Shown piece by piece: positions 9,885 through 44,637 of a stretch of 64,000 nucleotides of DNA. Origin of the DNA: Chloroflexota bacterium (lineage in GTDB: Bacteria > Chloroflexota > UBA11872 > JBHOQS01). Numbering within the stretch: the first letter of the stretch is position 1; the number at the start of each line of letters is the position of its first letter. Under the pieces are notes generated by a model. It saw only the letters and a program-made list of their open reading frames with translations, had not been told where the DNA came from and ran no database searches. The stretch covers positions 13,112 through 77,111 of the forward strand of contig JBHOQS010000018.1 in the NCBI GenBank assembly GCA_042408875.1, given 5' to 3'. The position numbers and the translations under genes were made by a program.

Positions 9885-10943
9885 TCACTCCATCTGCGTG
9901 GCGGCGAGCAGGAAGGCGCCGGTGCCCCAGGGATACGTGCCAGTGGGGATCGAGTTGTAGTGAGCGACGTCGCCGGGGCCGGTGCCGGCCGACACGCCGA
10001 CGACGTTGCCGCGCTCATCGACCTTGTCTTGCAAGGCCCGCCATGTGCGCCGCGCGGCGTCCATGTATAATCGTTCGAACAGACCGAGCGCGACGCCGCG
10101 GGCAAAACAGTAGGCGAACATGGCCGAGCAGGAGGTTTCGAGATACGTGTCCGGCCGCTCCAGCACAGTGTGCCACATCCCGCGCGGGTCCTGCACCCCT
10201 AGCAGCGCCTGGCAGTGCTGCTGGAAGAGCGCGGTGATGCGCGGCCTGCCTGGATGGGACTTGGGCAGCCACTCCAGCAGTTCGATGCACGACATGGCCA
10301 TCCAGCCATTGCCACGCCCCCAGAAGCCACTGGTACGCCGCCCGGTGCCGGCCTCCTCAGCGTGCAGGTAGAGGGCCCAGGCAGGGTCGAAGAGATGGGC
10401 CGCGTGCACCTCGACCTGGCGCACAGCCTCATCGAAGTAGGCCGGCCGGTCGAGCAATGCGCCCATACGGGCAAGCTCTGGAGCGCAGTAGTACACTGTG
10501 TCGACGAAAAGCCAGGCATGCCGGTCGGAGTGCTGGATCGCGCCGTCTGGCCAGCGAATGGCCTCGCGCATGATGAATTCGCAGATTCGTTCGCCGAGGG
10601 CCAGGTAGCGATCGTCCCGGAACACCCGAAAGAGCATGGGAACGACGAGGACCGGCCCCCAGGTCCCGCAGTAGGGCGTGACCGGCACCCCGTGCCTGAG
10701 ATGGTGGTCCATCCAGGAACGGAGATAGGTGAGATAGCGCTCGTGGGGGTATCGGTTCGCTGCGGCGGCCAGGCCGTACATCAGCAGCGACTCGCCCCAG
10801 TTGGTGCTCCACTCGGACGGTTTGCGGCTGAAGACCACAGCATCCGCGACCGTCTCGAGCAGGGTGTCAGGCATGCCGCACGTCTCCCCGATCCACTGCG
10901 CCGCGCTGTCGCGAAATACAGTGTGGCACGGCACAGGTTGCAT
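9885..10943 (-). CDS. GH105/GH88-family unsaturated (rhamno)galacturonyl/glucuronyl hydrolase-like protein
   Basis: FWGRGNGWMAMS and the surrounding (alpha/alpha)6-type pattern resemble YteR/UGL. An alternative start is ATG 10874. Confidence 0.65.
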   Translation of the reverse strand: MQPVPCHTVFRDSAAQWIGETCGMPDTLLETVADAVVFSRKPSEWSTNWGESLLMYGLAAAANRYPHERYLTYLRSWMDHHLRHGVPVTPYCGTWGPVLVVPMLFRVFRDDRYLALGERICEFIMREAIRWPDGAIQHSDRHAWLFVDTVYYCAPELARMGALLDRPAYFDEAVRQVEVHAAHLFDPAWALYLHAEEAGTGRRTSGFWGRGNGWMAMSCIELLEWLPKSHPGRPRITALFQQHCQALLGVQDPRGMWHTVLERPDTYLETSCSAMFAYCFARGVALGLFERLYMDAARRTWRALQDKVDERGNVVGVSAGTGPGDVAHYNSIPTGTYPWGTGAFLLAATQME

Positions 10944-13435: not shown

Positions 13436-13852
13436 GTGGGCGGTGCGGCCGGCGGCCCGTGGAGGATCCTCAGGAACACGATTTCAACACTACACGGCCC
13501 ACAGTTCGTGCGCTTTGACGTGGAGCTCGCAGGCGCACGCACCCGCGTCCGCGCCGGAAACGTACTCGAGCTGGAGATGGAGCCGATCCGGAACCCTGTG
13601 ACGAAGGCTGAGGTGTTCCCTCGAGTTGTCCTCCCGCAAGGCTTCGTCTACAACGAAAGCACTCGCACATCGTCGCGGGCGTTTCGTATCCAGGGACCGA
13701 TCCAGTACGAGTATGCGGGCCGGGACGCGGCTTTCTCACTGTTTGAGTACACCGGCCCGGAGCAGCGGGGCGGTGAGCAGGAGGGCGCACACCACGAGCG
13801 TCGCAGCGCTCATCATGGCGCCAACTTTGACCGAGAGCGGGTCATAGACTAG
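13436..13852 (+). pseudogene. Possible truncated DUF1326-like remnant (C-terminal half only)
   Basis: FVRFDVELAGARTRVRAGNVLELEMEPIRNPVTK...FRIQGPIQYEYAGRDAAFSLFEY parallels the C-terminal half of the intact DUF1326 gene at 62668..63279. The N-terminal CSC..CPC part is absent. The 3' end overlaps the convergent gene by 117 nt. Confidence 0.3.
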
Positions 13853-16318: not shown

Positions 16319-16435
16319 CGCGCCGGCATTCTACCACCCGCCGCGCGGCCGGACCAAGGGGTGCGCCTGCGCAGAGTGTTAGATACGCGGGCGATCTCGG
16401 CATACCGGCTGACCTGGGACACAGGAGGGAGCGCG

Positions 16436-17068
16436 ATGCTCGCCTGTTCGGTAGTCATTGTGGCCGGAGGAAAGAGCAGGCGTCTGGGCCAGGACAAGGT
16501 GCTGCTGCCCTGGCCGGTGCCACTGGACGCCGCGCCGGACGCTGATCCAGGGGTGCTGCGCGGCACGCTCCTCGGGGCGACGCTCAGCCGGCTGGCCAAT
16601 CTCTCCGATGACCTCATCGTGGCTGGCCGTGAGCTCCCGCCGGCGCCGCTCTACCGCTGTGTAGCTGACAACTTCCCCGATGCCGGGCCGCTGGGGGGCA
16701 TCGAGGCCGGGCTCGCTGAAGCGCGCTACCCGCGCGCCCTGGCCCTGGCAGCGGACATGCCGTTCCTTAACCTAGACCTGCTGCGGGCCCTGGTTGAGCT
16801 GGCAGAGCGTGAAGGTTGGGATGCAGTGGTCCCGCGGGTAGGAGAAGAGCTGGACCCGCTCCATGCGGTCTACAGCACAGGATGCCTGCCAGCCATCCGC
16901 GCTGCGCTGGCCACGGGGCAACGGCGGATGATTGCCTTTCTGCCGGCCGTTCGTGTGCGATATGTCGATGCCAGCGAGCTCCGGCGCTACGACCCCGAAC
17001 TGCGCTCGCTCTGGAATATCAACACCCCGGAAGATCTGAAGCAGGCGGCAGAGCTCGGAGGCGACTGA
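16436..17068 (+). CDS. mobA: Molybdenum cofactor guanylyltransferase MobA
   Basis: It carries the VVIVAGGKSRRLGQDKVLLPW signature and is about 210 aa. ATG 16436 follows AGGAGGGAG. Confidence 0.8.
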   Translation: MLACSVVIVAGGKSRRLGQDKVLLPWPVPLDAAPDADPGVLRGTLLGATLSRLANLSDDLIVAGRELPPAPLYRCVADNFPDAGPLGGIEAGLAEARYPRALALAADMPFLNLDLLRALVELAEREGWDAVVPRVGEELDPLHAVYSTGCLPAIRAALATGQRRMIAFLPAVRVRYVDASELRRYDPELRSLWNINTPEDLKQAAELGGD

Positions 17069-20461: not shown

Positions 20462-21820
20462 TCACGCCACCCAGTGCCCCCGTACAAACAAGGCAGTTAA
20501 CAGCCCCAGGAGCGGCAGCGCTAGGGCTAGATACATTCGCTCAAGTAGACCTGAGCCGTTGCTCCACTTTGCCAGCAAGATGAACACTGGCACGAGCATG
20601 AGCATGTAACGGTTGATGCTCCACAGGGTGAACGTGGAAACGGTCGCGGCCAGCACAGCGGCGCAAAAGACGCCGTAGCTGGGGCGCAGGCGGGCCAGGA
20701 TGAGAGGCGTAACGGCGCAGGCGCTCACCAGCAGGGCGTAATCGAGCACCTGCATGGTGCGCCATGCCCAGGGCGAGTGCAGCCGCGGCGAGAGATAGGC
20801 TGGAGCTGCTGCCAGACCAAGCAGCAAGCATACTTGTTCAAGCCGGGGCAGCCGCCGTGTAATCCACAGGACCAGCGCCAGGACGCCGGCCAGTGCCGCC
20901 AGAGTAGCGCTGAGCAGGACCGGCGGGAGTGCCTGCGCACCCTGGACAATCTCGCCGGCGATCGCCGGGGTCCTCTCCAGGAAGCTGAAGTCGGTCTCGC
21001 CCCAGTACGCCTTGGCGTTTCGAAAGAGCAATGGATCGCCGAAGCGCATCCACGTGTAGCCTGCGTAGATCGCCAGACCCGCCGGCACCAGCAGCCCCCA
21101 GAGCAGGCCGGCCCATCTCCGGCCGGGCGCACGGCGCGCGACGCTCATGTATTCCCATACCCAGAAGAGAGCGAAGAGGACGCCCACCGGCCGGGCGAGC
21201 GCCGCCAGGCCGCCCAGCAGGGCCCCCGCCGCCCAGCGTTGCTGCCGTGTCAGGTACATCGCCGGGATGAGCAGGGCCAGGAAGAGCGCTTCCGCGTAGA
21301 CGCTGGCCAGGAAAAACGACGACGGGAAGGCCAGCAGGTATAGCACGGCGCGCCGCGCTGCCGGTTCCGGCAGGTCCAGCCGGGCGAGGCGGTAGAGGAA
21401 GAGCATAGCGACGAGGACAGCGGCATGGGTGATGAGCAACCCGGCCAGGACATAGTCCCCCACCAGAGTTGAGAGCGCACGGATCGCTAGCGGGTACAGG
21501 GGAAAGAACGCCGCAGCCTGCTCCCAGGTGTACCCGTTCGCGGCGATGCCGATGTACCAGTCGGAGTCCCAGTGCGCCCACATGGCCAGCAACGGGTGAG
21601 GCGAGAGGCGTATAGAGGAGACCAGCGGCTCACCGTCCGGGGCGGGGCCGAGCACCTGCCAGGCGAGCAGGCCGGTGAGGGTGAGAGCGGCCCGCCACGC
21701 CAGCACCAGCGCGCAGATAACTACCCACCACGGCGCCGCACGGCCGCCTGCTCGATCACTGTGCGGCGCGGCTGCACGGGTGCGGGACGTGCTGGCAGGC
21801 GCTATGGGTGGCTGGACCAT
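20462..21820 (-). CDS. Polytopic membrane glycosyltransferase-like protein (PIG-V / mannosyltransferase-like GT-C candidate)
   Basis: The motif MWAHWDSDWYIGIAANGY followed by FFPLYP resembles PIG-V-type mannosyltransferases. It has more than 8 TM segments. I chose ATG 21818-21820 (SD GGGGAG). ORF 20462..22009 adds a low-complexity Ala/Gly/Pro/Arg extension. Confidence 0.55.
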   Translation of the reverse strand: MVQPPIAPASTSRTRAAAPHSDRAGGRAAPWWVVICALVLAWRAALTLTGLLAWQVLGPAPDGEPLVSSIRLSPHPLLAMWAHWDSDWYIGIAANGYTWEQAAAFFPLYPLAIRALSTLVGDYVLAGLLITHAAVLVAMLFLYRLARLDLPEPAARRAVLYLLAFPSSFFLASVYAEALFLALLIPAMYLTRQQRWAAGALLGGLAALARPVGVLFALFWVWEYMSVARRAPGRRWAGLLWGLLVPAGLAIYAGYTWMRFGDPLLFRNAKAYWGETDFSFLERTPAIAGEIVQGAQALPPVLLSATLAALAGVLALVLWITRRLPRLEQVCLLLGLAAAPAYLSPRLHSPWAWRTMQVLDYALLVSACAVTPLILARLRPSYGVFCAAVLAATVSTFTLWSINRYMLMLVPVFILLAKWSNGSGLLERMYLALALPLLGLLTALFVRGHWVA

Positions 21821-22075
21821 CACGGGCTCCCCGGCCGGGCCGCCTCGGCCGGGAGCAGGCCGGGCTGCTTGCGCAACCCCCCGGCCAGCACCGGGCTGGC
21901 GCTGTCCCGCGGCGGCATGCCGGGCACTTCCTCCACGCAGTGGGTCGGCAGGACACCGGTCGCCAGCGCCTGGTGCGCCTGGCGCTGCGCTGCCAGCACG
22001 TCCATCCATCGAGGCATACGCAGGTCTATGTGCTTCCTTCCTTCGTTACTCTCTGGTACTGGTAATGCTCTGTCA

Positions 22076-28234: not shown

Positions 28235-29635
28235 CTAATGGACGAACACGAGGCGCGCGGCGACCGTGGCGAACGTGGTGATGAGGGGTGCGGGGAACAG
28301 CCCAAGGGCCAGCACGGCTCCGGCAGGCAGCAGCAGAAGCGCCAGGCGCGCACGTCGTCCGGAGAGGGGAGCCGCTGCGGCGCGTGCGCTGGCACTATCC
28401 AGAAATGCTGTGGCGCGCCCGGCCCGCACTGCAGCCGCGGCGGCTAGCATGGCGGCGGCACAGAGGACAGTAGCTACTCCCCAGTGCGACTGAGCGGTGA
28501 TCTGCAACGCGCCGGCCAGTACGACAAATCCGGGGAGTGGCGGCAACCCCGCTACCGCAGCCAGCACGAACACCTCGGCCAGGCTACCCAGACGGCAGGG
28601 GATGCTGGCTGCTGCGGCCTGCCACGCTGCCAGCATCTGCGTGAGCGCCAGCGCAGTCAGAGCGACGGTGATTCCCGCCGGGGTCTGCGCGGCGAGGCCG
28701 CACAGCATGAGCCCGCCGGTATACAGCCAGAGCCCGGCCAGGCGCTGGCGGGACGTGCGCGCAGCATGCAGACTCCATCCGCCCACGAGCGAGGTCAGCG
28801 CGCCGGCAGCGAGGCTGAATCCGGCCGCCTGTGTCCCCGGCGCGAGGTAGGGGGAGCGCTGCCAGAGCTCCAGCAGCAACACCGCCACTGATGGACCAAT
28901 GGTCATGATCATGGCCGCCAGTACAGCTACCGGGAGATGCTCAGCAAGCTCCCACCACCAGAGGCAGAATGGACCGAGCGCGAGCCAGGCAGCGAAGCCA
29001 ACCAGCGTCAACGCGACGATGAAGGGCGGTGACACGAGCGGCTCACCATACGTCGCAAGTCCGCGGGCTAGCGAAGACGCCACGAGCAGGCAGAGCGAGC
29101 CACACACGGCGAAGATGGCATGCTTCATCGTGGCGAGTGCGGCTATGCCCCCGCCCGAGCCTGCCGCCGCACGCACAGGGAACAGGGATGGATCTGCGTC
29201 TGGCGAGGCGGCCGACCCGGCCGCCTCGTTGGCTGGCGCTACCGGTCCGAGCGCCGGCATGGCCGCGAGAATGCCGGCGGCGGCGATGGCCGCGACACGG
29301 ATCTCCCAAGGTACGCTCGCCTCAGGGGCGAGCGCGGCGGCAGTCCCCAGCAGCAGCACTGCAGCATGCTGTGCACGCTCCGTAGAGCACCATGCCGTGA
29401 CGGCAGCGAGGTACGCGGTCGATGCGAGCCCAAGCGCAGCCGAGAGCGCGCTGCCGGTCCCCAGAGCCGGGCGTGAGAGCAGCAGCACTGTTGCCGCGCC
29501 CCCAAGCGCGGCCAGGGGTGTCCACCAGCGGAGCAGGCGCCGAGGCAGTACAAGGGCGCCCAGCAACGCCGCACCCAGCACGAGCGAGCCTGCCGGCAAT
29601 GGCGCGCCGGCGAGCTGTACTAGGAGCGTGGCCAC
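28235..29635 (-). CDS. Polytopic membrane protein, degenerate NuoN/HyfF-like (antiporter-like) candidate
   Basis: The protein is 466 aa, Ala/Leu/Gly-rich, with at least 12 TM segments. GPFCLWWWELAEHLPVAVLAAMIMTIGPSV resembles the PFHxWxPDxYEGAPxPV signature with the polar residues substituted. The GTG start lies 9 nt after the upstream stop, with an AGGGGG SD. Confidence 0.6.
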   Translation of the reverse strand: MATLLVQLAGAPLPAGSLVLGAALLGALVLPRRLLRWWTPLAALGGAATVLLLSRPALGTGSALSAALGLASTAYLAAVTAWCSTERAQHAAVLLLGTAAALAPEASVPWEIRVAAIAAAGILAAMPALGPVAPANEAAGSAASPDADPSLFPVRAAAGSGGGIAALATMKHAIFAVCGSLCLLVASSLARGLATYGEPLVSPPFIVALTLVGFAAWLALGPFCLWWWELAEHLPVAVLAAMIMTIGPSVAVLLLELWQRSPYLAPGTQAAGFSLAAGALTSLVGGWSLHAARTSRQRLAGLWLYTGGLMLCGLAAQTPAGITVALTALALTQMLAAWQAAAASIPCRLGSLAEVFVLAAVAGLPPLPGFVVLAGALQITAQSHWGVATVLCAAAMLAAAAAVRAGRATAFLDSASARAAAAPLSGRRARLALLLLPAGAVLALGLFPAPLITTFATVAARLVFVH

Positions 29636-29644
29636 GGTCGCCCC

Positions 29645-30418
29645 CTACGAGCCTTCTGGCTGGCCCTCGACCGGCGTGGGCGCGCCGGCGCTACGAGCCG
29701 CGCCGGCGCGCCCACGCGCCTGGGCGGGACGCTGCCCTCGAGCAGTCTGGCGCGAGGCTTGTCCGCTGCCGGCTGCGCGCAGGATGCCTCGTTGCACCCA
29801 GCTCAGGCTGCCGGTCGCGCAGAAGTGTCGAGCCATGATCGGTGCGCTCACTCCGGCCACGGCCAGTTGCAGCAGGGCGCCGGCCAGGCCGACCACGCCG
29901 GCAGCCGGCCCGTCCTGCGTCTGCAACAGCGTTGCCCCGTGGCAGAGCAGCAGCAGGCCGACCGTGGCGTGGTGGAGGTCGGAGGCGAGCAGGACGGCGA
30001 AGACGCCAACCAGGCCGAGCCAGATGGCGGCGAACTCGAGCTCCGCGGGCCCACTGACGACGTGCTGCAGCGACATGCCCCAGGCGCCGGCGGCGCTGGC
30101 CAGGACCACGCTCAGCAGAAAGAAATCGTCGAAGAAGGCGTGCCGGCGCACCAGGCTGGTCTCGAAGTACCGGCCCTGCGCGACAGCCTGGGCCCGACCA
30201 TACACCACAAGCCCCTGGAGCGTCAGTCCAAGCATGGCGCTGGCGGTGAGCCCGGCCAGGCTCAGGCCCAGCCCGGCTGGCGCGCCGGCGACCCGCCACA
30301 CCAGCAGGCCGGACAGCAGATACTGGACCGCCAGGCCGGCCAGGCTCGGCCGCCAGTGTCGGGCCAGCACAGCGACCCCGCCAGCGCACACAAGCGCCGT
30401 GTTGACGAACAGTAGCAT
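29645..30418 (-). CDS. Membrane protein, degenerate HyfE/NuoK-like candidate
   Basis: The protein is 257 aa. GLLLLCHGATLL...GVVGLAGALLQLAVAGV resembles the HyfE/NuoK GxxLxENGxxL region. It has a basic low-complexity C-terminal tail. Confidence 0.5.
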   Translation of the reverse strand: MLLFVNTALVCAGGVAVLARHWRPSLAGLAVQYLLSGLLVWRVAGAPAGLGLSLAGLTASAMLGLTLQGLVVYGRAQAVAQGRYFETSLVRRHAFFDDFFLLSVVLASAAGAWGMSLQHVVSGPAELEFAAIWLGLVGVFAVLLASDLHHATVGLLLLCHGATLLQTQDGPAAGVVGLAGALLQLAVAGVSAPIMARHFCATGSLSWVQRGILRAAGSGQASRQTARGQRPAQARGRAGAARSAGAPTPVEGQPEGS

Positions 30419-30496
30419 ACGTTCAGGATTCCTCTAGCCGGGCGCGCGACTAGGCCGAGCTTGTGCCGCCTCCCGGCATTGTCCTCTGGCCCCGCG

Positions 30497-32212
30497 TCAT
30501 TGTGCCAGCAGCACGACTGCGGCAACGCCGGCCAGCATCGCGCCGATGATGTAATACCGGCCATGCAGGGCCTGGAGCAGGGCGTGCCAGCCAAGCACTG
30601 CCTGCTCGAGAAGTCGGGCCAGGTCTGGCAGCGGGAGCCCAGCCGGAGACGCTCCCCCTCGTACCTGAGCCCACCGACTACGCAGGTGAACGGTCGCCAG
30701 CAGCAGCGCGGACGCTCCTGCCATGGCTAGAAGCCCCCACGCGGCCGACCACGCCAGCTCAACCGCGGTAAGACCGGTGAGGTGGACGACCACGTCACCC
30801 GCCGCGGCCGGCAGGATGTCCTGTATGGCCGTACCGCCGGCCAGGAATACGCCGAACGGGCGCACGAAGATGGCGGCGGACAGTGAGACCGCCAGGAGCC
30901 CGGCGCGCGGCTGATGGATCAGCCGCCTGACGTTAAAACGAGCAGTCCTGCGGCTCGCCACGAGTCCGTGGCCGAGCAGCACGGCCGGCACGCCGAACCC
31001 TAAGGCACCGAGCAGGAGCACCAGCGCAGCCAGCCATGGTCCGTCGCCCGCGGCCCAGTACGCTAGGCAGCGGGCGGCAAGCGCCGCGGGAAGGTAGGCT
31101 ACCGGCAGGCCAGGCAGCACGGATGCTCGGTGATCGGCCAGCGTCCGCTCGCCCAGCAGGATCGCTCCGGCGAGCAAGGCTAGCGCAGCGCCGGGCCAGC
31201 CGCGTTCGCCAGCACCGACACCGACCAGTGCTACCCCGAAGAGGTCGCCGGCCATGGCCCGCCACAGCAGCTGACCCCGGACCTCCTCGCCGAGATGCAC
31301 ATACGCGGCGACCAGCCGGAGGGCGGCCCAGGCCGAAATCCCCAAGCCCAGCAGGACGAGAAGAGACGCTGGCTGCTCCGGCCCACCGGCCAGGCCGTCT
31401 ACCCGCCAGAGCAGGATCCACCCTCCGGCGATGGCGGGCACCAATAGAGGTACACAGGCTGTGAGCGGCTGCTCGGTCGCTGCCAGCAGACGCAGCGGGA
31501 GGCTGAGCGCCAGCATCGCTGCTGCCAGCAGATAGACGGCTGTGGTGGCAGGAAGGCCGGCTGGGACAATGGCCACGGCAAGGGACGAGCCATTCATCTG
31601 CGCCAGCCGCACCGTGGCCACGAGCAATGCTGCACCGGCCAGGAGCAGCATGAGCTGGGTGGGCTCTGGCCCCACGACGGACCCTGTGCGCCTCCTGGGC
31701 CTCGTCAGGCCAGCCAGCACACGGGTGTGGAGCCAGACGCTCGAGGCGGCGAAGATTCCTGCCAGCCAGGCGAGCTGGAGCACATCCGGGGCCGCGGCCA
31801 GCAGGACGGCCAGCCCGCCGGCAAGCAAGGGACCGGCGTACACCGAGGCCGGGGCAGCCGGCCTCGGTGTCGTGGCGAGCAGCACTGTCGCCAGGGCCGT
31901 TGCCGCAGCTGCGCCCAACGCCAGCAGCGCGTTCAGCAGTCCGGCCTCGATGCCCGCCGAGACAGGCATGCCGGGCCACGGTGCCCAGTCGAATGTCCAG
32001 CGTGCAACGCCATGCGTGGCTACAAGCCGGACTACCGCACCTGCCAGCACGACCGCAAGCAAGCTCGCTGCGGCTACACCGGCTTCCAGCAGCCTGCGCC
32101 GACGCTGGTCGAGGACAGCGGCGCCTGCCCAGCAGAGCGCTGCCATAGCGAAGAACAGCAGCGCCACTGCCGCTTCAAGCAGGGCTACCATCCGTACCGC
32201 TCCGGTCCCCAC
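30497..32212 (-). CDS. Polytopic membrane protein, degenerate NuoL/HyfD-like (antiporter-like) candidate
   Basis: The protein is 571 aa with at least 14 TM segments. LPLRLLAATEQPLTACVPLLVPAIAGGWILL resembles [20 protein letters not shown]. The start is uncertain (an alternative Met lies at 32191) and overlaps the upstream gene end. Confidence 0.6.
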   Translation of the reverse strand: MGTGAVRMVALLEAAVALLFFAMAALCWAGAAVLDQRRRRLLEAGVAAASLLAVVLAGAVVRLVATHGVARWTFDWAPWPGMPVSAGIEAGLLNALLALGAAAATALATVLLATTPRPAAPASVYAGPLLAGGLAVLLAAAPDVLQLAWLAGIFAASSVWLHTRVLAGLTRPRRRTGSVVGPEPTQLMLLLAGAALLVATVRLAQMNGSSLAVAIVPAGLPATTAVYLLAAAMLALSLPLRLLAATEQPLTACVPLLVPAIAGGWILLWRVDGLAGGPEQPASLLVLLGLGISAWAALRLVAAYVHLGEEVRGQLLWRAMAGDLFGVALVGVGAGERGWPGAALALLAGAILLGERTLADHRASVLPGLPVAYLPAALAARCLAYWAAGDGPWLAALVLLLGALGFGVPAVLLGHGLVASRRTARFNVRRLIHQPRAGLLAVSLSAAIFVRPFGVFLAGGTAIQDILPAAAGDVVVHLTGLTAVELAWSAAWGLLAMAGASALLLATVHLRSRWAQVRGGASPAGLPLPDLARLLEQAVLGWHALLQALHGRYYIIGAMLAGVAAVVLLAQ

Positions 32213-33615
32213 GGCCGGCGCACCAGCTCCTGTTTGGCAAGCACCAGTGTCCGTGAGGGCAGGTCCTCGTACAGGATGACGCCGGGGCCGACGCAGCTAT
32301 ACGGCCCGATCTTGCAGCCGGGCATGATGATGGCGTTCACCCCGGTGCGACAGAATTCGCCGATATAGGTCGCGTTGGCGCCGAAGGGCGGCACCTCCGG
32401 CCGGCCCTTGATACGATGCACCGTCGCCGCGTCGTCGAAACGGAGGGTCCCGCACACCGTGGCAGCGCCGATATCGGTGGCGGTGCCAACCACGCCGGCG
32501 ATCTCGCAGTAGTGATACAGGTACGCCCGGTCCATCAGCACGCCGCTCATCTCAGCGCCGTGGCCGACGATACAGTGATGGCCGATGCTAGTATGGCCGG
32601 CGATCTCGCAGTAGTTGCGGATGATCGTGTGGTCACCGACGGCGACGTTGGGGCCGAGCACGGCGCCGTTGGTGATCGTGCTATGGTCGCCCAGCCAGAC
32701 GGTGCCGTGCACCACGCAACGCGGCCCGATAACGCTCCCCTTGCCGGCGACGACGCGACCGTGGATCTCTGCGCTCTCGGCGATGCGCGCTGTAGGATCG
32801 ATACTATCGCCCTCCAACTTGCGCGCAGCATAATCCAGGAAGCGCCGGTTTGCCTCCAGCAGGTGCCAGGGCTTGTCCAAATCGATGAAGAGCTCGGCCG
32901 CCGGGACGGCCAGCACTTCCAGCGACTCGTCGAGCATGAGCTGCAGCGACGCTGCCAGCTCCGCCTCTAGCGGTGGCATCCCGCCCACGGGGACGCTCTC
33001 CAGCACGCCAGGATTGCGCTCGATATACGACACGGCGCGCCGACTGAAGGCATAGATGCCACACAGGCGGTAGTGGCCGCTGCGCGGGTGGCCAATCACG
33101 CGCACCAGTGCGCCGCCGCTGGCCTCGGCGCAGATCCAGTCGCGCGGCTCCTCTCCGCCGAGCCCGGCGAGCAAGGCCGCGCCAGGAACATCCTCGGCGG
33201 CATACGCCCGCGCCAGCGCCTGGAGGTTCTCCGGCGCGACCACCGTATCGCCGGCTGCGACCAGGAAGTGATCACTCTCCACCAGCGGGAGGGCATGGAG
33301 GAGCGCATCAGCGGTGCCCCGCGGCGCCGGCTGGGTGACGAACGTGACCTCCGGCAGGCCACCCAGTGCCTGGCGAATGCGCCCGCCAGCCGGGCCGACC
33401 ACGACGATGAAGCGGGTGCATCCGGCGTAACGCAGCGCATCGACCAGCCGGCGCACAGCCGGCACGTTGGCGATCGGCAGGCTCGCCTTCGGCCGCGTCT
33501 CGCTGTACGGCCACATGCGGCTGCCGGACCCTGCTGCCAGGATCACCGCCGTCTCCAGCCGGCGGCTGCCCCCGGCGGGTTCCGCCAGCGCTGCTGTGTC
33601 CACTGCCGCTTCCAT
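32185..33615 (-). CDS. GlmU-like bifunctional protein: sugar-1-phosphate nucleotidyltransferase domain plus left-handed beta-helix (hexapeptide) domain
   Basis: It has AVILAAGSGSRMWPYSETRPKASLPI (NTP_transferase) and a long C-terminal run of hexapeptide repeats (IGPRCVVHGTVWLGDHSTITNGAVLGPNVAVGDHTIIRNYCEIAG...). ATG 33613-33615 is preceded by a GGAGGGA SD. Confidence 0.8.
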   Translation of the reverse strand: MEAAVDTAALAEPAGGSRRLETAVILAAGSGSRMWPYSETRPKASLPIANVPAVRRLVDALRYAGCTRFIVVVGPAGGRIRQALGGLPEVTFVTQPAPRGTADALLHALPLVESDHFLVAAGDTVVAPENLQALARAYAAEDVPGAALLAGLGGEEPRDWICAEASGGALVRVIGHPRSGHYRLCGIYAFSRRAVSYIERNPGVLESVPVGGMPPLEAELAASLQLMLDESLEVLAVPAAELFIDLDKPWHLLEANRRFLDYAARKLEGDSIDPTARIAESAEIHGRVVAGKGSVIGPRCVVHGTVWLGDHSTITNGAVLGPNVAVGDHTIIRNYCEIAGHTSIGHHCIVGHGAEMSGVLMDRAYLYHYCEIAGVVGTATDIGAATVCGTLRFDDAATVHRIKGRPEVPPFGANATYIGEFCRTGVNAIIMPGCKIGPYSCVGPGVILYEDLPSRTLVLAKQELVRRPWGPERYGW

Positions 33616-33637
33616 CCCTCCGGGCTCTGATCAGGCG

Positions 33638-33646
33638 GATTATACC
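33638..33646 (-). promoter_or_regulatory. Extended -10 promoter TGgTATAAT for the four-gene operon
   Basis: The minus-strand sequence is catGGTATAATccgcc. The perfect TATAAT (complement of 33638-33643) carries an upstream TG and lies about 23 nt upstream of the ATG. Confidence 0.5.
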
Positions 33647-33812
33647 ATGCCCTTTCGCTTGTCCCGCCTGGGGGTCTATGGTAGATTGACAATAAGCCAT
33701 CCGACAGCATCACCGCGCGGCCACCTGGGGCGTATCCTGCCTGCCTTCTCCGGCGCGATTACCGGTCGGTTCTGTTCTGTGCAACAGTACGCTCACAGGG
33801 CGTAAGTCGGGG

Positions 33813-35282
33813 GTGCGCGTACTGCGCATGAGTGGATACATCCTGCACACGAACGACCAGCACGGGCGCCTCGGCACCTTTCCGCAGATCGCCGCGCTCA
33901 TCCAGCAGTACCGCGCTGCCTACCCGGACACCCTGCTCGTCGATACTGGTGACCTGGGGCTGGCGCGCTACTACTGGCCGCTCATCGTCTCGGTGCTCCA
34001 ACACATCCGCTACGATGCCATCGTGCCGGGGAACCTGGAGACACAGCTCGCGGACTCTGCGTCTGCGGCCGATCGCTTGGTCGAAGTCGGTGCGCCACTG
34101 CTAGCGGCGAACCTCCAGGACTGGTGGGCGCCGTCTCAGCCTGTGCTGGTGGCAGCCTGTGGCGATCTCACTGTGGGCCTGCTGGGGCTGACCACCCCCG
34201 TGCCCTATCCGCCTGGCCATCCCCTCGCGCCGGCCGAGCGCCCACCCGGCACACCGGTGATCACCGATCCGATCGAGGCGGCGCGCACATGGGTGCCGCG
34301 TGTACGGCAGATGGCTGATGCCGTGGTGGTCCTGTCCCATCTGGGGCTGGCCGGTGACCTCCCCCTGGCGCGAGCCGTTCCGGACATTGACCTCATCATC
34401 GGCGGGCACAGCCATCATCGCTTGGCCAGCCCCATCCGCATCGGGCGCACTAGCATCGTGCAGGCCGGGCTGAACAACATGGCTTTAGGCTGCTCGTCCC
34501 TGCGGCGTGAGGACGGCGGCATTGCCGTCGAGTATCGCCTCGTACCGGTAACCCTGGGCACGCCCCGCGATGTTGCTGTGGACGAATTGGTGACGCACTA
34601 CCTCGAGCGATGCTATCCAGAGAAGCTCGAGGTCATCGCGCACACGGAGGGATTCTCCGGCGACCATGCCCTTGAGAACGGCTTCAGCAATCTCGTGACC
34701 GATATCCTTCGCCACGCAGCAGGAGCCGACGTCTTTTTGACCAAAGCCAGCTTCATCGTGCCGCCGATCGAGCCCGGTCCGCTGCGGCTGTGGGATCTGG
34801 AGATGCATGTCTTCCTGGCGACTGCCTCAGTTGTGGTGATGGAGCTAAGCGGACAGGAGCTGCTGGCGGCACTGGAGCATGGCGCCACCGATCCTGTGTT
34901 CACGTTCCTGCCTCCAGAGACCCGCACTGAGGATGCTCGTCTGATCGAAGAGGCAGAGGTGCGACCGGCGACGAACTTCCTGTACCAGTCAGGTATGCGG
35001 CTCGTCATCGACTATACGCGGCCGTGGGGGGAGCGGGTCGTCCTGGCGCGCCTGGGGCGGGGCAGGCTGCGCCCGGAACGTACGTATACTGTCGCCATGG
35101 ACAGCTTCCTGGCGCAGGGATACTCTGGATTTCAATGGTTCGTACAGGGACGGAACCGGCGCGAGGCCGGGAAGGTCATGGACCTGCTGGTCACGGAGCT
35201 CCGCCGGCGCGCCCGGGCCGGCCTGCTGCGCGGCCGGCTCGACGGCCGGCTCCATGTGCGGGGCCTGCGCTTCGCTGCCTGA
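33813..35282 (+). CDS. Bifunctional metallophosphatase / 5'-nucleotidase (UshA-like)
   Basis: The motifs are ILHTNDQHGRL, DTGD, PGNLE and GGHSHH, with a C-terminal 5'-nucleotidase substrate domain. ATG 33828 is an alternative start. Confidence 0.8.
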   Translation: MRVLRMSGYILHTNDQHGRLGTFPQIAALIQQYRAAYPDTLLVDTGDLGLARYYWPLIVSVLQHIRYDAIVPGNLETQLADSASAADRLVEVGAPLLAANLQDWWAPSQPVLVAACGDLTVGLLGLTTPVPYPPGHPLAPAERPPGTPVITDPIEAARTWVPRVRQMADAVVVLSHLGLAGDLPLARAVPDIDLIIGGHSHHRLASPIRIGRTSIVQAGLNNMALGCSSLRREDGGIAVEYRLVPVTLGTPRDVAVDELVTHYLERCYPEKLEVIAHTEGFSGDHALENGFSNLVTDILRHAAGADVFLTKASFIVPPIEPGPLRLWDLEMHVFLATASVVVMELSGQELLAALEHGATDPVFTFLPPETRTEDARLIEEAEVRPATNFLYQSGMRLVIDYTRPWGERVVLARLGRGRLRPERTYTVAMDSFLAQGYSGFQWFVQGRNRREAGKVMDLLVTELRRRARAGLLRGRLDGRLHVRGLRFAA

Positions 35283-38279: not shown

Positions 38280-39608
38280 GTGACTGGAAGCTCGCGCATC
38301 ACGATAGTCCGCACGGCGGCACGCGGCATCGCGTGCGAGTTAGAGTCGATCGCACCGGCCGTCCTGGCAGTGCTGGTGGCCGGGGGGCTGCTCCTGCGGC
38401 TGGGCATCGCCCTGGCCATGGGCGATGCGCCGCCGCGCGATGATGCCATCGACTACGAGCTGCTGGCACGCAACCTGGCGGCAGGCTACGGCTTCTCGCT
38501 CCGGCCGCCCGAGCCGTCGGTGTTCCGTCCGCCGCTGGCCCCGACGTTCCTGGCCGCAGTGTACGTGCTGGTCGGGCCGCAGCTCCTGGCCGCCAGGTTG
38601 GCTCAGGCGGTGCTGTCTGCTGCGACCATTCCTCTGACCTACGCCCTCGCGCGGGCCTTCGCGCCCCGGCGCGGCGCGCTGCTGGCTGCCGCGCTGGTGG
38701 CGCTCTCCCCCGCCCTGGCTGCCCATGCCTCGCTGTTCCAGACCGAAACGCTTTTCAGCGTGCTCACCGCGGCCGCAGTACTTGCGCTGCTGCGTGGGTA
38801 CGCCGCGGCGCGCTCTGGCCGCGGGCTGGCCTGGACGTGGGCTGCGCTGTGTGGGGCCTTGCTAGGGCTAGCCAACCTAGCCCGGCCGACGCTGCTGGCT
38901 CTGCCGCTGCTGCTGCCACCTGCCTGGGCGTTGCTGGAGATGCAGCGGCGCCGCGGCGTCGCGCTGGGCTGCGTGGCCGCGCTGAGCGCCGTCATAGTCA
39001 TCGCTCCCTGGACGCTGCGGAACTACGCGGTCTCCGGAGCGTTTGTGCCGGTGGCGCTGAACCGCCTGGGCATGACCGTGTGGGCCGGCAGCTATGCGCC
39101 GTGGCGTAACCAGTGGAAGAGCGACGCTGACCGCCCGGCGCACCTGCAACAGGTCGATGTCGATACGGTCGAGGGTGACCGGGTCATGCTCCGGGAGGCG
39201 CTGGAGAACATCCGCTGGCAGCCGGATGCGTATCTGGCGCAATGGCCTCTGCGCTTCTTCACCCTGGTGCGCACGGATACGTCGTACTGGCCCTTTGGCG
39301 AGTTGGCAGGCCCGGGCCGCTGGTGGAAGGTGCCCCTGAAGGCGGCGCTTCATGGCGTACACCTGCTGACCCTGGGGCTGGGTCTCTTCGGTGCCGTCCG
39401 CCTCTGGCGAGCTGGCGGGCCGACCCGGCGTATGGCCGGGTGGGTCGCGCTCGTGCTAGGACAGTACCTTTTCTTAAACAGCCTGCCACACACGGAGCCA
39501 CGCTTCCTCGTTCCGATGCTCCCCCTCATCGCTGCTCTGGCTGCCGGAGTGCTGCCCGAGCAAACAACAGTCGTGCCAACGGTTGACGCACCTGGGGCAG
39601 GAAGCTAG
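38280..39608 (+). CDS. ArnT/PMT-like (GT39/GT83-type) membrane glycosyltransferase
   Basis: DDAIDYELLARNLAAGYGFS...PPLAPTFLAAVY is typical of the PMT_2/ArnT-like N-terminal loop. It has multiple TM segments and a GTG start. Confidence 0.7.
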   Translation: MTGSSRITIVRTAARGIACELESIAPAVLAVLVAGGLLLRLGIALAMGDAPPRDDAIDYELLARNLAAGYGFSLRPPEPSVFRPPLAPTFLAAVYVLVGPQLLAARLAQAVLSAATIPLTYALARAFAPRRGALLAAALVALSPALAAHASLFQTETLFSVLTAAAVLALLRGYAAARSGRGLAWTWAALCGALLGLANLARPTLLALPLLLPPAWALLEMQRRRGVALGCVAALSAVIVIAPWTLRNYAVSGAFVPVALNRLGMTVWAGSYAPWRNQWKSDADRPAHLQQVDVDTVEGDRVMLREALENIRWQPDAYLAQWPLRFFTLVRTDTSYWPFGELAGPGRWWKVPLKAALHGVHLLTLGLGLFGAVRLWRAGGPTRRMAGWVALVLGQYLFLNSLPHTEPRFLVPMLPLIAALAAGVLPEQTTVVPTVDAPGAGS

Positions 39609-39733
39609 AATCCGAGTGCCGCCACCGCGCCGTGATGGCAATTATGTAAAGCAATGAAGGTGGCGTGGCCGCGCTCGCCAGCGCGTGTGCTCCGCCACAG
39701 TCGCAGCCCTCGCCATGTCGGCCCCCTGGACGT

Positions 39734-41161
<1,428 letters not shown>

Positions 41162-41183
41162 GCCCGGGCCCCATCTCTTACCG

Positions 41184-41199
41184 TGGCACGGAAGTTGCT
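41184..41199 (+). promoter_or_regulatory. Sigma-54 (-24/-12) promoter TGGCACGgaagTTGCT
   Basis: It is a perfect match to TGGCACG-N4-TTGCW, with GG (41185-86) and GC (41197-98) 12 nt apart. It lies in the 112-nt gap between the bEBP gene stop (41161) and the kinase start (41274). Confidence 0.75.
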
Positions 41200-41273
41200 C
41201 ATAGGATGCCACAGGCAGGCACGGAACTGGTTCGGCGTGCCCGGCTGGGAGTTCGACACCCTCGAAGGCAACG

Positions 41274-43091
41274 ATGGTGGCGCGTCCAGGCACAGCAGGC
41301 GCCAGGGTAGACGAGGCAGGCAGGTCTGTCGGACAACGCTCTGCGGCGACGAGACAGACCAGAGGAGGCGGCGTCGCTGTTGAGCCGGACACTGTCGCTG
41401 CGCCGCTGGGCCAGTTCGGCACCACGCCGGGCGTGCTCACGCGAGGCACGCTCGAGGATCTGCTGACACTCTTGCGTGGCGGCCTCATTCTCGTCACGCT
41501 GGTGAGCTACGCAGCCGGGTATGCGCCGTCCACCGCGGCAGCCGGTTTCGCCACCGTGGGCGTGGCCCTCTACGGCGTGCTGCTGCTGATCGGTCGCGCG
41601 GTGCACGTGCTGCCGGGCGCGCGCTGGCCGCTTGCCATAGCAGATTGCGCCCTCATCGGCGTGGCGACCGCAACGACCGGCGGGATCATCAGTGCCGCCC
41701 AAGCAGCTTTCGTGCCGGTCGTGTTCGCCGCCGGTTTACGCCTGCGCCTCTGGCAGCTCGGTACCGTGCTGGCTGCCGCCGCGCTCGCCCATGCCGTGGG
41801 TACCCAGACGCTCCAGTTCCGGCCAGACGGCGCGGTGCCGTGGCTGACGGTCTTTGCCTTCACTGCGCTGGCCGGTGCGGCGGCACGGGGTGAGCTCACG
41901 ACCGTCGTGGAGCGCTGCCGCCTGCTGTGGCGCATGCAGGTGGCGTTCGCCCGGCTGCATACCGCGCGCACGAGCACGGAGCTTGTACAGGCGGTGACCG
42001 CAGCCTGCACCGACCTGCTCCAGGCCGATCGTGTACGCCTGTTCCGTTCAGAGCGAGGCCTGTTGGTGGAGGTGCACTGCCGGGCGTGGGGCGCCGGGGA
42101 CGACGGTGGCGAGCCCAGCGTGCTGCTGGAGCGAGCAGTGCGCGAGCAGCGCGTCCAATGGTGGGTCGAACCGGCAACGCCTGCGGCGCCGCGCGGGTGG
42201 ACCCGGCTGGCGCTGCCGCTAGCGCACAGGGAGGTGTCGCTGGGCGCCCTGGAGGTATCATGGGAGGGGTGTGCGGTCGGGCAGCGCGGTGCTCGCGAGA
42301 TGATCGGGGCGCAGTTGAGCACCCACGTGGCGGCCGCGCTGGCCAACGTGCAGGTCCACGAGCAGGCCCGCCTCGGTGTCCAACGGCTAGCGCACCTGGG
42401 CTGCTACAAAGGGGATTTCATTGCTATGCTCTCCCATGAACTGCGCACACCGCTCACAGCGATCAAGGGCTTTGCCCAGTTGCTGCGCCGCAGCGAGCGC
42501 ATGGACCCCGCAACAGTCAGCCGGTACGCCGCCGTGATCGTCATGGAGAGCAATCACCTGATCTCTACCATCGAAGACATCGTCCATCTCACGAACATCG
42601 AGGAAGGGCTGCTCGAGCTTCGCCGGGAGCGCGTGGATATCCATGCCGTGCTGGAACAGGCGCTTGACAGGCTGCGCCACATCATCACGGCGCCGCGGTT
42701 CCGGTACGCCGGCCGCCCGGCGCCGGTCTGGGCGGTGACGGATGCAGCTCGCCTGGAGGAGGCGTTGCGCAACCTGTTCATCGCCGCAGTCAAGTACGCG
42801 CCGGAGCCGCCGAAGAATGGCGCGGCGCCGGAGCGGTGCTTTGAGTTCGGCGTCATCGAGATGGCAGATAGGATCCTGATCTGGCTGGCCGACCCGACGC
42901 CCGGCCTGCACCGCTCGTATGACCTGCTGCGGGAGTTCGAGCAGGCGCCGGAGGGCGGGCGTACCATCACCGGCAGCGGGTTGAGCCTTTATATTGCCAA
43001 GCATATCATCGAGGCGCTGGGTGGTAGCCTGGCGATTGGCCCCTACCGCGGCGGTACCCGTTACGTGGTGCGGCTGCCCCAGGGAGCGTAG
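41274..43091 (+). CDS. Membrane sensor histidine kinase (multi-TM N-terminus, GAF-like region, HisKA, HATPase_c)
   Basis: The HisKA motif is FIAMLSHELRTPLTAIKGF, and the C-terminal GSGLSLYIAKHIIEALGG is present. There are about 5 N-terminal TM segments. Confidence 0.85.
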   Translation: MVARPGTAGARVDEAGRSVGQRSAATRQTRGGGVAVEPDTVAAPLGQFGTTPGVLTRGTLEDLLTLLRGGLILVTLVSYAAGYAPSTAAAGFATVGVALYGVLLLIGRAVHVLPGARWPLAIADCALIGVATATTGGIISAAQAAFVPVVFAAGLRLRLWQLGTVLAAAALAHAVGTQTLQFRPDGAVPWLTVFAFTALAGAAARGELTTVVERCRLLWRMQVAFARLHTARTSTELVQAVTAACTDLLQADRVRLFRSERGLLVEVHCRAWGAGDDGGEPSVLLERAVREQRVQWWVEPATPAAPRGWTRLALPLAHREVSLGALEVSWEGCAVGQRGAREMIGAQLSTHVAAALANVQVHEQARLGVQRLAHLGCYKGDFIAMLSHELRTPLTAIKGFAQLLRRSERMDPATVSRYAAVIVMESNHLISTIEDIVHLTNIEEGLLELRRERVDIHAVLEQALDRLRHIITAPRFRYAGRPAPVWAVTDAARLEEALRNLFIAAVKYAPEPPKNGAAPERCFEFGVIEMADRILIWLADPTPGLHRSYDLLREFEQAPEGGRTITGSGLSLYIAKHIIEALGGSLAIGPYRGGTRYVVRLPQGA

Positions 43092-43193
43092 GCAGGTGAC
43101 CGGTATGCCGTTCCGCTCCCAGCCGGAGCCGGTGGCGGCCAGCTCGCGGGATCTTTGCACTCAGGATAGGGTGCACCGAAGAGAGGGTGTACC

Positions 43194-43227
43194 AAGGATA
43201 GGGACCGAGTAAGGATAGGGACCGAGT
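43194..43227. repeat. Perfect 17-bp tandem duplication AAGGATAGGGACCGAGT x2 directly abutting the rpoN ATG
   Basis: The copies are at 43194-43210 and 43211-43227, and the ATG is at 43228. A partial third copy (GGATAGGG) is at 43164-43171. Confidence 0.95.
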
Positions 43228-44637
43228 ATGGAACTAAATACTGAACTTACCTTGCTACCCCAGCAGCACCAGAAGGTGTCCCCGCGGCTCGTTGCCGTCA
43301 ACCATATCCTGGAACTCAGCTCGATGGAGCTCCAGGAGCTTATCGAGAAGGAGTTGGAGGAGAACCCGGCGCTGGAGCTCGTGGAGACGACGGTGTGCCC
43401 GACCTGTGGCGCGGCCATGTCCGGGCCGGTCTGCACCCACTGCCTGAGCCATGCCCAGAAGACCAAGGAGCTCGCCGAGGCCCAGCCCGAAGACGAGGAG
43501 TACGATCCGGGGACGCCGGCGGGCGGACTGCGGCGGACCGACGACGAGTTTGATCCGATGACGATTGTGGCGACACAGGTCACCCTGGAAGAGCATCTGC
43601 TGAACGAGCTACGCCCCATGCTCTCGGCAGACCAGGTGCCAGTCGCCGAGTATCTCGTAGGAAACCTCGACTCCCGCGGGTATCTGCAGTGCAGCGCTAG
43701 CGAGGTGGCCGCGGACCTGGGCGTCCCGGTCGAGACGGTCGAACAGGTGATCAGACTGCTCCAGTCCGTGGAACCAGTCGGCGTCGGTGCGCGCTCGCTG
43801 GAGGAGTGTCTCTGCCTTCAGCTCGACTACCTGGCCGCGCAGGGGGTGACACACCCACACGCGCGCGAGATCGTGGAACGCTATTTGGAGGAGCTGGGCG
43901 AGCACAAGTACGGGCGCATTGCCCAGCGGCTCGGCATCACTACCGACGAGGTTGCTGCAGCCGCGGAGTTCATCAAACGCTCCCTCAATCCATTTCCCGC
44001 GCAGAGCTTCTATAGCGGCAACCGCAATGCGCACGTGGCGGCTGGCAGCTACGTGCTCCCGGACGTGATCATCACGAAGCGCGACCGTGGCTACGAGATC
44101 GATATCGTCGAGTCGAAGCGCTTCTTTCTAAAGATTAACCCGCTCTATACGCGCCTACTCAGCCAGGCCGAAGACGTGGGCATCTCCGAGGAGGAGCGCC
44201 GGCACATTCAGCAGTACGTCTCGCGGGCCAAGCAGTTTCTGGCCAACATCCACCAGCGCCGGCAGACGCTGCTGAAGATCACAGCTTGCATCGTATCGCA
44301 CCAGCGGGAGTTCCTGAGCCGGGGAGTGCGCCACCTGCGCCCGCTCACCCGGGCGATGGTCGCGGCAGAGCTAGGCATGCACGAATCGACCGTCAGCCGT
44401 GCCACCGCCTCAAAATACGCCATGCTGCCGTCGGGGCAGGTCATGCCGTTCAGCGACTTCTTCACCCCGTCGCTGAGCGTGAAAGATGTGATCAGAGACC
44501 TGATCGAGCACGAGACCACTCCGCTCACCGACGAGCAGATCCGCGATGAGCTGGCCAAGCGCGGCCTGCATATCGCCCGCCGCACTGTCGCGAAGTATCG
44601 CGACCAGCTCAAGATCTTACCGTCCTCATTGCGCTGA
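43228..44637 (+). CDS. rpoN: RNA polymerase sigma-54 factor RpoN
   Basis: Region I is LTLLPQQHQKVSPRLVAVNHILELSSMELQELIEKELEENPALE. The HTH is VAAELGMHESTVSRA and the RpoN box is ARRTVAKYR. It contains the insertion CPTCGAAMSGPVCTHC. Confidence 0.93.
   Translation: MELNTELTLLPQQHQKVSPRLVAVNHILELSSMELQELIEKELEENPALELVETTVCPTCGAAMSGPVCTHCLSHAQKTKELAEAQPEDEEYDPGTPAGGLRRTDDEFDPMTIVATQVTLEEHLLNELRPMLSADQVPVAEYLVGNLDSRGYLQCSASEVAADLGVPVETVEQVIRLLQSVEPVGVGARSLEECLCLQLDYLAAQGVTHPHAREIVERYLEELGEHKYGRIAQRLGITTDEVAAAAEFIKRSLNPFPAQSFYSGNRNAHVAAGSYVLPDVIITKRDRGYEIDIVESKRFFLKINPLYTRLLSQAEDVGISEEERRHIQQYVSRAKQFLANIHQRRQTLLKITACIVSHQREFLSRGVRHLRPLTRAMVAAELGMHESTVSRATASKYAMLPSGQVMPFSDFFTPSLSVKDVIRDLIEHETTPLTDEQIRDELAKRGLHIARRTVAKYRDQLKILPSSLR

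Follow-up and report, generated by a model that had tools for sequence, protein, structure and literature searches.

Complex I, the Mrp antiporters and the energy-converting hydrogenases share antiporter-like membrane subunits as their conserved ion-translocating engine, and the buried lysines of these subunits are deemed essential. The locus described here is a four-gene operon in a Chloroflexota bacterium (assembly GCA_042408875.1, contig JBHOQS010000018.1, positions 13,112 to 77,111). This whole stretch of 64,000 nucleotides was analysed and is called the window, and all coordinates below are window coordinates. Gene 1 encodes a GlmU-like enzyme, and genes 2, 3 and 4 encode polytopic membrane proteins that resemble an antiporter module to differing degrees. 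The locus is probably a detached, rewired remnant of such a module, kept under selection and co-expressed with gene 1, and unlikely to be a lysine-relay pump.

HyfD-HyfE-HyfF of formate hydrogenlyase-2/hydrogenase-4 (E. coli and Pectobacterium) resemble genes 2-3-4 in order and size. HyfE (~215 aa) has a C-terminal NuoK-like domain, which is the two-part layout of gene 3, and HyfF and HyfD are PF00361 proteins, as are the relatives of gene 4. HyfDEF are additions that the enzyme can do without (PMC7384014). In contrast to the Hyf systems, a GlmU-like gene heads the operon, and neither hyfA, B, C, G, H or I nor any further hydrogenase gene is present in the 64 kb. Curated hidden Markov models (HMMs) also miss genes 2-4, Cys/His stands in gene 3 where HyfE has the Glu of transmembrane helix 2 (TM2), and gene 4 has lost the HyfF/NuoN lysines.

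The A-(B)C-D order of the Mrp antiporters (CPA3) matches genes 2-3-4 as well, and the best PDB matches of gene 3 are MrpC-type. MrpC/NuoK belongs to the antiporter module (PMC9568556). Bacillus MrpC has a GLxLLSHGAxLL motif with a His, as does gene 3. The strictly conserved MrpD Glu/Lys pair, however, is broken in gene 4 (Lys to Trp), and the central and terminal lysines are missing. The full mrpA-G set does not occur at the locus.

Among the complex I subunits NuoL/NuoK/NuoN (ND5/ND4L/ND2), an extended gene 4 profile matches E. coli NuoN, Thermus thermophilus Nqo14 and mitochondrial ND2 best. Gene 4 shares with NuoN the broken-helix sequence motifs of TM7 and TM12 and the TM6 lysine (K158 in NuoN). 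Unlike complex I, the locus has no NuoA, H, J or peripheral-arm genes, and gene 2 has neither a lysine nor detectable sequence homology.

Gene 1 is closest to the archaeal GlmU family TIGR03992, which likewise combines an N-terminal nucleotidyltransferase with a C-terminal hexapeptide beta-helix; it differs in scoring below the cutoff of that model and in having a 44%-identical relative in a GlcNAc (N-acetylglucosamine)-salvage operon. NuoL homologs of the DabB/MpsA type are stand-alone PF00361-type proteins with non-redox partners; they serve independently of complex I, Mrp and hydrogenases, and their genes are paired with one for a soluble enzyme. They are readily detected by PF00361 and retain the charged relay. 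The present locus lacks a DabA/DUF2309 partner but has a K-like subunit and another large membrane protein.

Operon structure and coupled expression

All four genes lie on the minus strand. Gene 1 (32185-33603) encodes the GlmU-like protein, gene 2 (30497-32191) a 564-aa polytopic membrane protein, gene 3 (29645-30418) a 257-aa HyfE-like membrane protein, and gene 4 (28235-29635) a 466-aa, highly divergent Proton_antipo_M subunit of the NuoN/MrpD/HyfF type. The DNA of the locus is ~70% GC, and both strands hold long spurious open reading frames (ORFs) that overlap genes 1-4. In the frames of genes 1-4 alone, GC is lowest at the second codon position and high at the third. Against two relatives, the ratio of nonsynonymous to synonymous substitution rates (dN/dS) is 0.17-0.34 for genes 2-4 (0.27-0.34 for gene 2), so these are real coding genes under purifying selection. 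The corresponding values for gene 1, the neighbouring Gfo/Idh/MocA gene and the 5'-nucleotidase gene are 0.06-0.10, and the three membrane genes therefore evolve 3-5 times faster than their neighbours, still under purifying selection.

The preliminary description of this DNA had proposed four same-strand genes with tight junctions, and the ORF coordinates and the spacers of 78 nt (gene 2/gene 3) and 9 nt (gene 3/gene 4) agree with it. The 28-nt overlap that it gave for genes 1 and 2 is instead read as 7 nt (ATGGTAG), because all five gene 2 homologs begin at the ATG at 32191 (MVxLLEAA). Gene callers also give 564 aa for gene 2, against 571 aa if the ORF is extended to 32212. The identical 7-nt overlap is found in the relatives L001, L002 and L003. 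Genes 1-4 form a conserved operon that is probably co-translated, and the strongest case for coupled expression is the conserved overlapping start. Genes 2, 3 and 4 of the window also share one reading frame (first base mod 3 = 1), which looks coincidental, since the frames differ in L001 and L002.

The start of gene 1 is probably the GTG at 33603, which is kept in the relatives and gives 472 aa as in those proteins; the ATG at 33615 (476 aa) is not kept. A Shine-Dalgarno sequence had been noted before this gene, and its GGAGG core (33617-33621, minus strand) is present in all four lineages, the window included. The distance from this core is 1 nt to the non-conserved ATG and 13 nt to the conserved GTG.

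The extended -10 element TGGTATAAT, read directly from the minus strand at 33639-33647, was likewise seen earlier, one base off. The window, L002, L003 and L001, the last more diverged, share it without change along with its flanking bases, and an upstream block is conserved as well. A scan for consensus promoters and terminators gave nothing; the absence of a sigma-70 -35/-10 pair is compatible with an extended -10 promoter. The upstream block, GGCTTAT(T/C)GTCAATCTA (33655-33700), is intergenic between gene 1 and a divergent 5'-nucleotidase gene (33813-35282) and is kept in all four lineages. Its reverse complement holds a perfect TTGACA, and the block may serve the divergent UshA-like gene as its -35 or be bound by a shared regulator.

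Gene 4 is a divergent antiporter-like subunit

Gene 4 has no match in direct Pfam or NCBIfam searches (E <= 1) or in PDB searches with the single sequence or a narrow profile. Its close homologs number only four among 5.8 billion proteins, and a scan of the GTDB collection with gene 4 gave no relative. Its identity was recovered through intermediate sequences. An exhaustive phmmer search with a concatenated gene 2/gene 3/gene 4 query against 1.84 billion representative proteins returned 11 matches in total, among them the distant protein P0017, which matches gene 4 at E = 2e-5. P0017 and two further distant matches, P0020 and P0019, carry PF00361 (Proton_antipo_M) at 1e-37, 3e-24 and 1e-4, respectively, in the same region that matches gene 4, and a narrow gene 4 profile scores them at 59.9 bits (P0017), 55.7 bits (P0019) and 41.0 bits (P0020). 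The best NCBIfam match of P0017 is MrpD.

Direct profile comparisons agree with this placement. In hhalign, the five gene 4 sequences align with an E. coli-only set of NuoL/M/N and HyfB/D/F over 283 columns (83% probability, P = 8.9e-6) at a score of 50.9, compared with 15-26 for six unrelated membrane proteins and for the reversed sequence. Gene 4 scores 39-50 bits in a family HMM from which it was left out. When the gene 4 profile is extended with the bridging sequences, it finds NuoN (3rko_N) in the PDB at 1e-17, followed by Nqo14, ND2, MrpD and MbhH down to 1e-13. By these comparisons gene 4 is classified as a genuine, very divergent Proton_antipo_M protein of the NuoN/MrpD type.

Residues were mapped by the HMMER alignment to E. 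coli NuoN and cross-checked with hhalign. The by-eye register proposed earlier, which set GPFCLWWWELAEH of gene 4 against PFHxWxPD, is the one that both programs yield. The TM7 motif G221-P-F-C-L-W226 (GPFxLW) and the TM12 motif G363-L-P-P-L-P-G-F370 do not vary and fall on their NuoN counterparts in the alignment. NuoN K158 corresponds to K171 in TM6, the sole lysine of gene 4, which is invariant. The other lysines are gone: the ion-pair residue K217 is W217, an invariant Trp; the central TM8 residue K247 is G247 by HMMER or T245 by hhalign; and the terminal TM12 residue K395 is L373. NuoN H224 corresponds to C224, and D229 is conservatively changed to E229. Residues 236-255 and 355-377 contain no K, R, D, E or H. 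E133/K217 is a conserved ion pair of NuoN (PMC13073174; PMC11496545), and K247A and K395A nearly abolish complex I function (PMC13073174). The TM5 Glu (NuoN E133) may survive in gene 4 as the invariant W110-E111, which precedes a variable loop of ~35 residues, in a part of the alignment where confidence is close to zero. An inspection of the TM5 Glu and the TM7 and TM12 Lys positions had been proposed at the outset; the two lysine replacements are clear from it, and the glutamate is aligned without confidence. Gene 4 has its own invariant polar set: E229, E232, H233, E256, E354, Q378, Q382 and H384.

P0017 and P0020 retain the TM12 Lys and have an Arg at the K217 position. Each of their genes is followed by a NuoB-like gene, which places the nearest recognisable relatives of gene 4 in hydrogenase-like or complex-I-like operons. 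A partial gene upstream of P0017 (contig L006) is gene-3-like (hhalign 87%, 3.9e-6), so the arrangement [gene-3-like][PF00361][NuoB-like] occurs in nature.

P0019 is itself a degenerate antiporter-like protein (449 aa), without Lys at the TM7 or TM12 positions. It is encoded on an unrelated metagenome contig (L007, 3469-7169) with a 4-nt overlap to the gene for an unclassifiable 784-aa polytopic protein, and the neighbours of the pair encode an M23-peptidase-like protein and an S1-domain protein but neither GlmU nor NuoB. This possible second orphan pair suggests that lysine-less stand-alone modules may occur in more than one lineage. The 784-aa protein was considered as a fusion of genes 2 and 3 and was rejected, as profile and hhalign comparisons gave no support.

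Gene 3 probably belongs with HyfE, MrpC and NuoK

Gene 3 has an N-terminal TM extension of ~125 aa, a three-TM MrpC/NuoK-like domain from about residue 128, and an Arg/Ala-rich tail. In HyfE, PF00420 covers residues 127-216 of 216, and the MrpC/NuoK-like match in gene 3 begins at 128-136. The top PDB match of the gene 3 family profile is 6u8y_G, the MrpC-type subunit of the Pyrococcus MBS complex (E = 0.056). With the distant homolog P0021 (41.6 bits with the family profile) added, this match improves to E = 0.0073, and Bacillus MrpC (7qru_C) comes second at E = 0.19. The TM2 motif GLLLLCHGATLL aligns with GYCLMENGSHL of HyfE and GLILLSHGAHLL of Bacillus MrpC. It had been set against the HyfE/NuoK motif by eye, and the PDB profile and hhalign alignments place it in the same register. 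Against a NuoK reference of established members, hhalign gives P = 0.02-0.03 for gene 3, again in this register, and 0.2-0.75 for controls. On these comparisons gene 3 is probably HyfE/MrpC-like.

The TM2 Glu of HyfE and MbsG is C159 in gene 3, with H160 adjacent. The membrane carboxylates of NuoK/HyfE (NuoK E36/E72) are not retained, and no acidic residue lies between D169 and E251. The preliminary description saw the canonical charged residues of the module as substituted, which agrees with the lost lysines of gene 4 and the lost TM2 Glu of gene 3. The His of the gene 3 motif falls outside that claim: Bacillus MrpC also has His, and it is thus a natural MrpC-type variant rather than simple decay.

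Gene 2 may be the large antiporter partner

Gene 2 has ~16 helices and sits in the NuoL/MrpA/HyfB/D position, upstream of the K-like gene. Genes 2-4 are all Ala/Leu/Gly-rich and polytopic, as first described, and nearly free of lysine (0/564, 0/257 and 1/466 in genes 2, 3 and 4), with arginine at 4-6%.

Searches with gene 2 gave no match in Pfam (E <= 10, all five members), in NCBIfam, or in the PDB by single sequence or profile. In hhalign, local and global, gene 2 scores 14.6 against the antiporter family and 14.9 when reversed, like the controls, and HMMER bits are negative. hhalign of gene 2 against gene 4 gave nothing, and matching the narrow profiles to individual E. coli Nuo and Hyf proteins with hmmsearch was uninformative. 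The proposed HyfDEF/NuoLKN-like trio is therefore borne out by profiles for gene 4 and largely for gene 3, with weak statistics, and has no sequence homology behind it for gene 2; the HMMER and hhalign comparison with antiporter and NuoK profiles, suggested as a check, gave the same gradation, from a clear result for gene 4 through a weak one for gene 3 to none for gene 2.

Two weaker indications favour a topology like that of NuoL/HyfB. Its hydropathy, compared without gaps over 440 residues, correlates with NuoL (r = 0.31-0.36) and HyfB (r = 0.30-0.43) at best lags of -4 to +1. The 84 control values at lag 0 are all <= 0.24, with scattered best lags, and true family pairs give r = 0.16-0.55, except that pairs with NuoN have their peak at shifted lags. 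In an unsupervised global alignment of profiles, gene 2 passes the landmark regions of the family in order, pairing E82 with NuoL D82, LPLRL with LPLQTWL, AGGWILLWR with AGVYLIAR, and RGQLLWRAMAGDLFG with KRVLAYSTMSQIG. A forced-global alignment test was not discriminating and was used as a hint; an earlier semi-global version lacked power and was discarded. Taken together, gene 2 is somewhat more probably than not an L/A/B/D-type antiporter partner.

Gene 1 is a GlmU-like enzyme

The assignment of gene 1 as a nucleotidyltransferase with hexapeptide domains is confirmed by Pfam, which finds NTP_transf_3 (5e-18), NTP_transferase (5e-15) and Hexapep (1e-18). The two nucleotidyltransferase matches span residues 23-160 and include LAAGSGSRMWP with its G-x-G-x-R signature, and Hexapep occurs in three stretches. 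The best NCBIfam match is TIGR03992 (Arch_glmU) at 5e-59, full-length (residues 22-447 on 2-392 of 393). Gene 1 is GlmU-like but outside curated TIGR03992, since its 200 bits fall below the 292-bit cutoff; bacterial GlmU models reach at most 79 bits against cutoffs of at least 367. Gene 1 is thus a predicted soluble, archaeal-type GlmU-like protein, with the presumed activities of a bifunctional sugar-1-phosphate nucleotidyltransferase and left-handed beta-helix acyltransferase. The gene 1 proteins of the relatives are 89-94% identical, with dN/dS 0.06-0.07.

Among GTDB species genomes, the sole relative of gene 1 found is 44% identical and lies in a Bacillota metagenome-assembled genome (MAG; locus L014, 6986-13580). 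It is followed by genes for a BadF-type sugar kinase, a SIS protein and a GH84 beta-N-acetylglucosaminidase, with a polysaccharide deacetylase nearby, and appears to head an amino-sugar (GlcNAc) salvage operon. No homologs of the membrane genes 2-4 occur at this locus. The L014 protein and gene 1 both end in ELVR(K/R)xWGxERYGW, an unusual C-terminus.

Distribution and partner genes

The four-gene block is kept in every relative with enough contig, which answers the question of synteny raised at the outset, and a third, more distant lineage (49% identity) retains the Gfo flank. A metagenome scan with gene 2 recovered only the already known 53%-identity lineage. All holders come from a single narrow clade with an entirely syntenic neighbourhood, so synteny says little about functional coupling. 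Co-occurrence with the GlmU-like gene accordingly holds within this clade. Outside it, homologs of gene 1 and of the module occur separately, the nearest outside relatives of the module lying without gene 1 and beside NuoB-like genes. A functional tie of the module to nucleotide-sugar synthesis, as had been put forward, is not established by an operon structure seen in one narrow clade, with a gene 1 homolog elsewhere that has no module.

The absence of partner genes from the vicinity, by comparison, holds up: the ~40 ORFs of the window and the +/-10 kb around the loci of the relatives contain no Nuo, Mrp or hydrogenase partners. The Pfam families for MrpE, MrpF, MrpG and the MrpA C-terminal domain are likewise missing from these ORFs and flanks. 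NuoB/NuoD-like and NuoH-like genes do not occur in the 64-kb window; NuoB-like genes are present beside the distant P0017 and P0020.

Interpretation and alternative explanations

The reading proposed here is that gene 3 corresponds to HyfE/MrpC/NuoK, gene 4 to NuoN/MrpD/HyfF and gene 2 probably to a NuoL/MrpA/HyfB-type subunit. Since the nearest relatives of the module adjoin NuoB-like genes, its most likely history is detachment from a hydrogenase-like or complex-I-like enzyme. Proteins 2, 3 and 4 would assemble as one complex, which, given the residues lost, would no longer be a lysine-relay proton pump. Gene 1 and the module would be made in a fixed ratio through the overlapping ATGGTAG junction. 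The new membrane role may be that of a scaffold, of an altered conduction or transport path, or of a docking platform for gene 1; an altered path would use the invariant Glu, His and Gln residues of gene 4 listed above. It is conceivable, and quite improbable, that the GlmU-like enzyme replaced the lost redox arm and docks on the lysine-less remnant as a membrane-bound nucleotide-sugar machine. If so, the scaffold of the former pump would find a new use at the membrane, either in organising the synthesis of envelope glycans or in linking that synthesis to an ion gradient or the passage of substrate.

Several points weigh against the detached-module reading. The partner search covers 64 kb of genome, and partner genes could lie elsewhere. 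The pairing of gene 1 with the module is confined to one narrow clade where everything is syntenic, and the 44%-identical gene 1 homolog sits in its GlcNAc-salvage operon without the module. Gene 2 has no statistically supported homology to any protein, and what favours it comes from home-made tests. In the forced-global test its z of 4.2 (circular shifts) compares with up to 3.1 for unrelated transporters and only 2.5 for the true positive gene 4. For gene 3 there is no Pfam or NCBIfam match, none of the family members matches at E <= 10, PF00420 included, and the best E-value, 0.007 in a small database (PDB), is weak. The alignment of gene 4 has near-zero confidence everywhere upstream of K171, the TM5 Glu included. 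AlphaFold2 models built from five-sequence alignments have a predicted local distance difference test (pLDDT) score of 38 for gene 4 and 35 for gene 2, are unusable at such values, and give no structural support for either protein. Finally, the loss of pumping is a prediction from sequence alone.

Genes 2-4 could instead be a decaying relic of a lost hydrogenase-like or Mrp operon that lies behind gene 1 by accident and is transcribed from the shared promoter. Their dN/dS of 3-5 times that of the flanking genes would fit decay, as would the loss of all canonical relay lysines, the very narrow distribution (11 matches in 1.84 billion representatives), the gene 1 homologs that manage without the module, and the failure of curated HMMs to recognise any of the three membrane proteins. 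A relic is nevertheless unlikely: at least four lineages, separated by synonymous divergences (dS) of ~0.5-1.4, have kept all three ORFs intact and at a conserved length, dN/dS is well below 1, many invariant polar residues and motifs remain, the overlapping ATGGTAG start is kept, and the more distant 49%-identity lineage keeps the same flank. The opposite view, that genes 2-4 are a minimal but active cation or proton translocator with a rewired Glu/His polar axis, independent of gene 1, draws on the same purifying selection. It also draws on the retained broken-helix motifs, on the invariant K171/H172, E229, E232, H233, E256, E354, Q378, Q382 and H384 of gene 4 in or next to TM helices, and on the report that dissected antiporter modules can conduct protons alone (PMC11496545). 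It too has a low probability, as gene 4 has Gly and Leu where K247A and K395A nearly abolish function in NuoN (PMC13073174), the window ORFs and the relatives' flanks yielded no MrpE/F/G and no MrpA C-terminal domain, and evolutionary constraint is relaxed.

A more serious alternative, although still short of an even chance, is that gene 2 encodes a polytopic envelope protein without kinship to the antiporters, for example a GT-C-like or polymerase/ligase-like protein or a transporter, and is followed by a two-gene HyfE/HyfF-like pair. Nothing in HMMER, hhalign, Pfam, NCBIfam or the PDB connects gene 2 with the antiporters, and it scores the same as its reversed sequence. The comparison with gene 4 is empty, whereas true NuoL, NuoM and NuoN are paralogs, and several GT-C-type genes lie nearby. 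Yet gene 2 has no GT-C or Wzy match either (E <= 10, all five members), its hydropathy is in register with NuoL and HyfB at a lag near 0 and above the 84 control values, the unsupervised alignment passes five canonical motif regions in order, and its position and size fit an L/A/B/D-type subunit upstream of a K-like gene. A GT-C or O-antigen-polymerase identity for genes 2-4 as a whole was rejected, as no such match exists and gene 4 is positively placed elsewhere.

If the locus is a detached and rewired antiporter module, its family is a natural experiment on the capacities of the scaffold once the relay is gone and on the recycling of a module after loss of its enzyme. It also illustrates that curated HMMs miss real superfamily members, which come to light only by way of intermediate sequences. 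That the family is tiny and known from metagenomes only limits its practical weight.

Genomic neighbourhood

The operon appears to lie in an envelope-glycan region, as the annotations of its neighbours suggest. Within 15 kb of it are three genes for proteins like GT-C-type membrane glycosyltransferases: a YfhO gene (13736-16318), a PIG-V-like Mannosyl_trans2 gene (20462-22009) and a PMT_2 gene (38280-39608). Three Gfo/Idh/MocA oxidoreductases and xylose-isomerase-like TIM barrels are also encoded there. The region further includes a GH88 gene (9885-10943), a MobA-like nucleotidyltransferase gene (16289-17068) and the divergent UshA-like 5'-nucleotidase gene (33813-35282), which shares its promoter region with gene 1.

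A sigma-54 regulatory cluster occupies 39665-44637: RpoN itself is encoded at 43228-44637, together with a histidine kinase (41274-43091) and a response regulator that depends on sigma-54 (39665-41161). Further along, ~5.8 kb (53240-59080) have a GC content of 57%, compared with 65-70%, and do not show the GC3-rich codon signature. An rRNA operon was considered for this low-GC stretch and rejected, since Rfam and ARAGORN find no rRNA or tRNA in it; the Rfam and tRNA scans of the window as a whole also returned nothing. The stretch holds five plus-strand ORFs (54241-54708, 54753-55322, 55550-56212, 56294-57745 and 57745-58716) and may be a horizontally acquired island.

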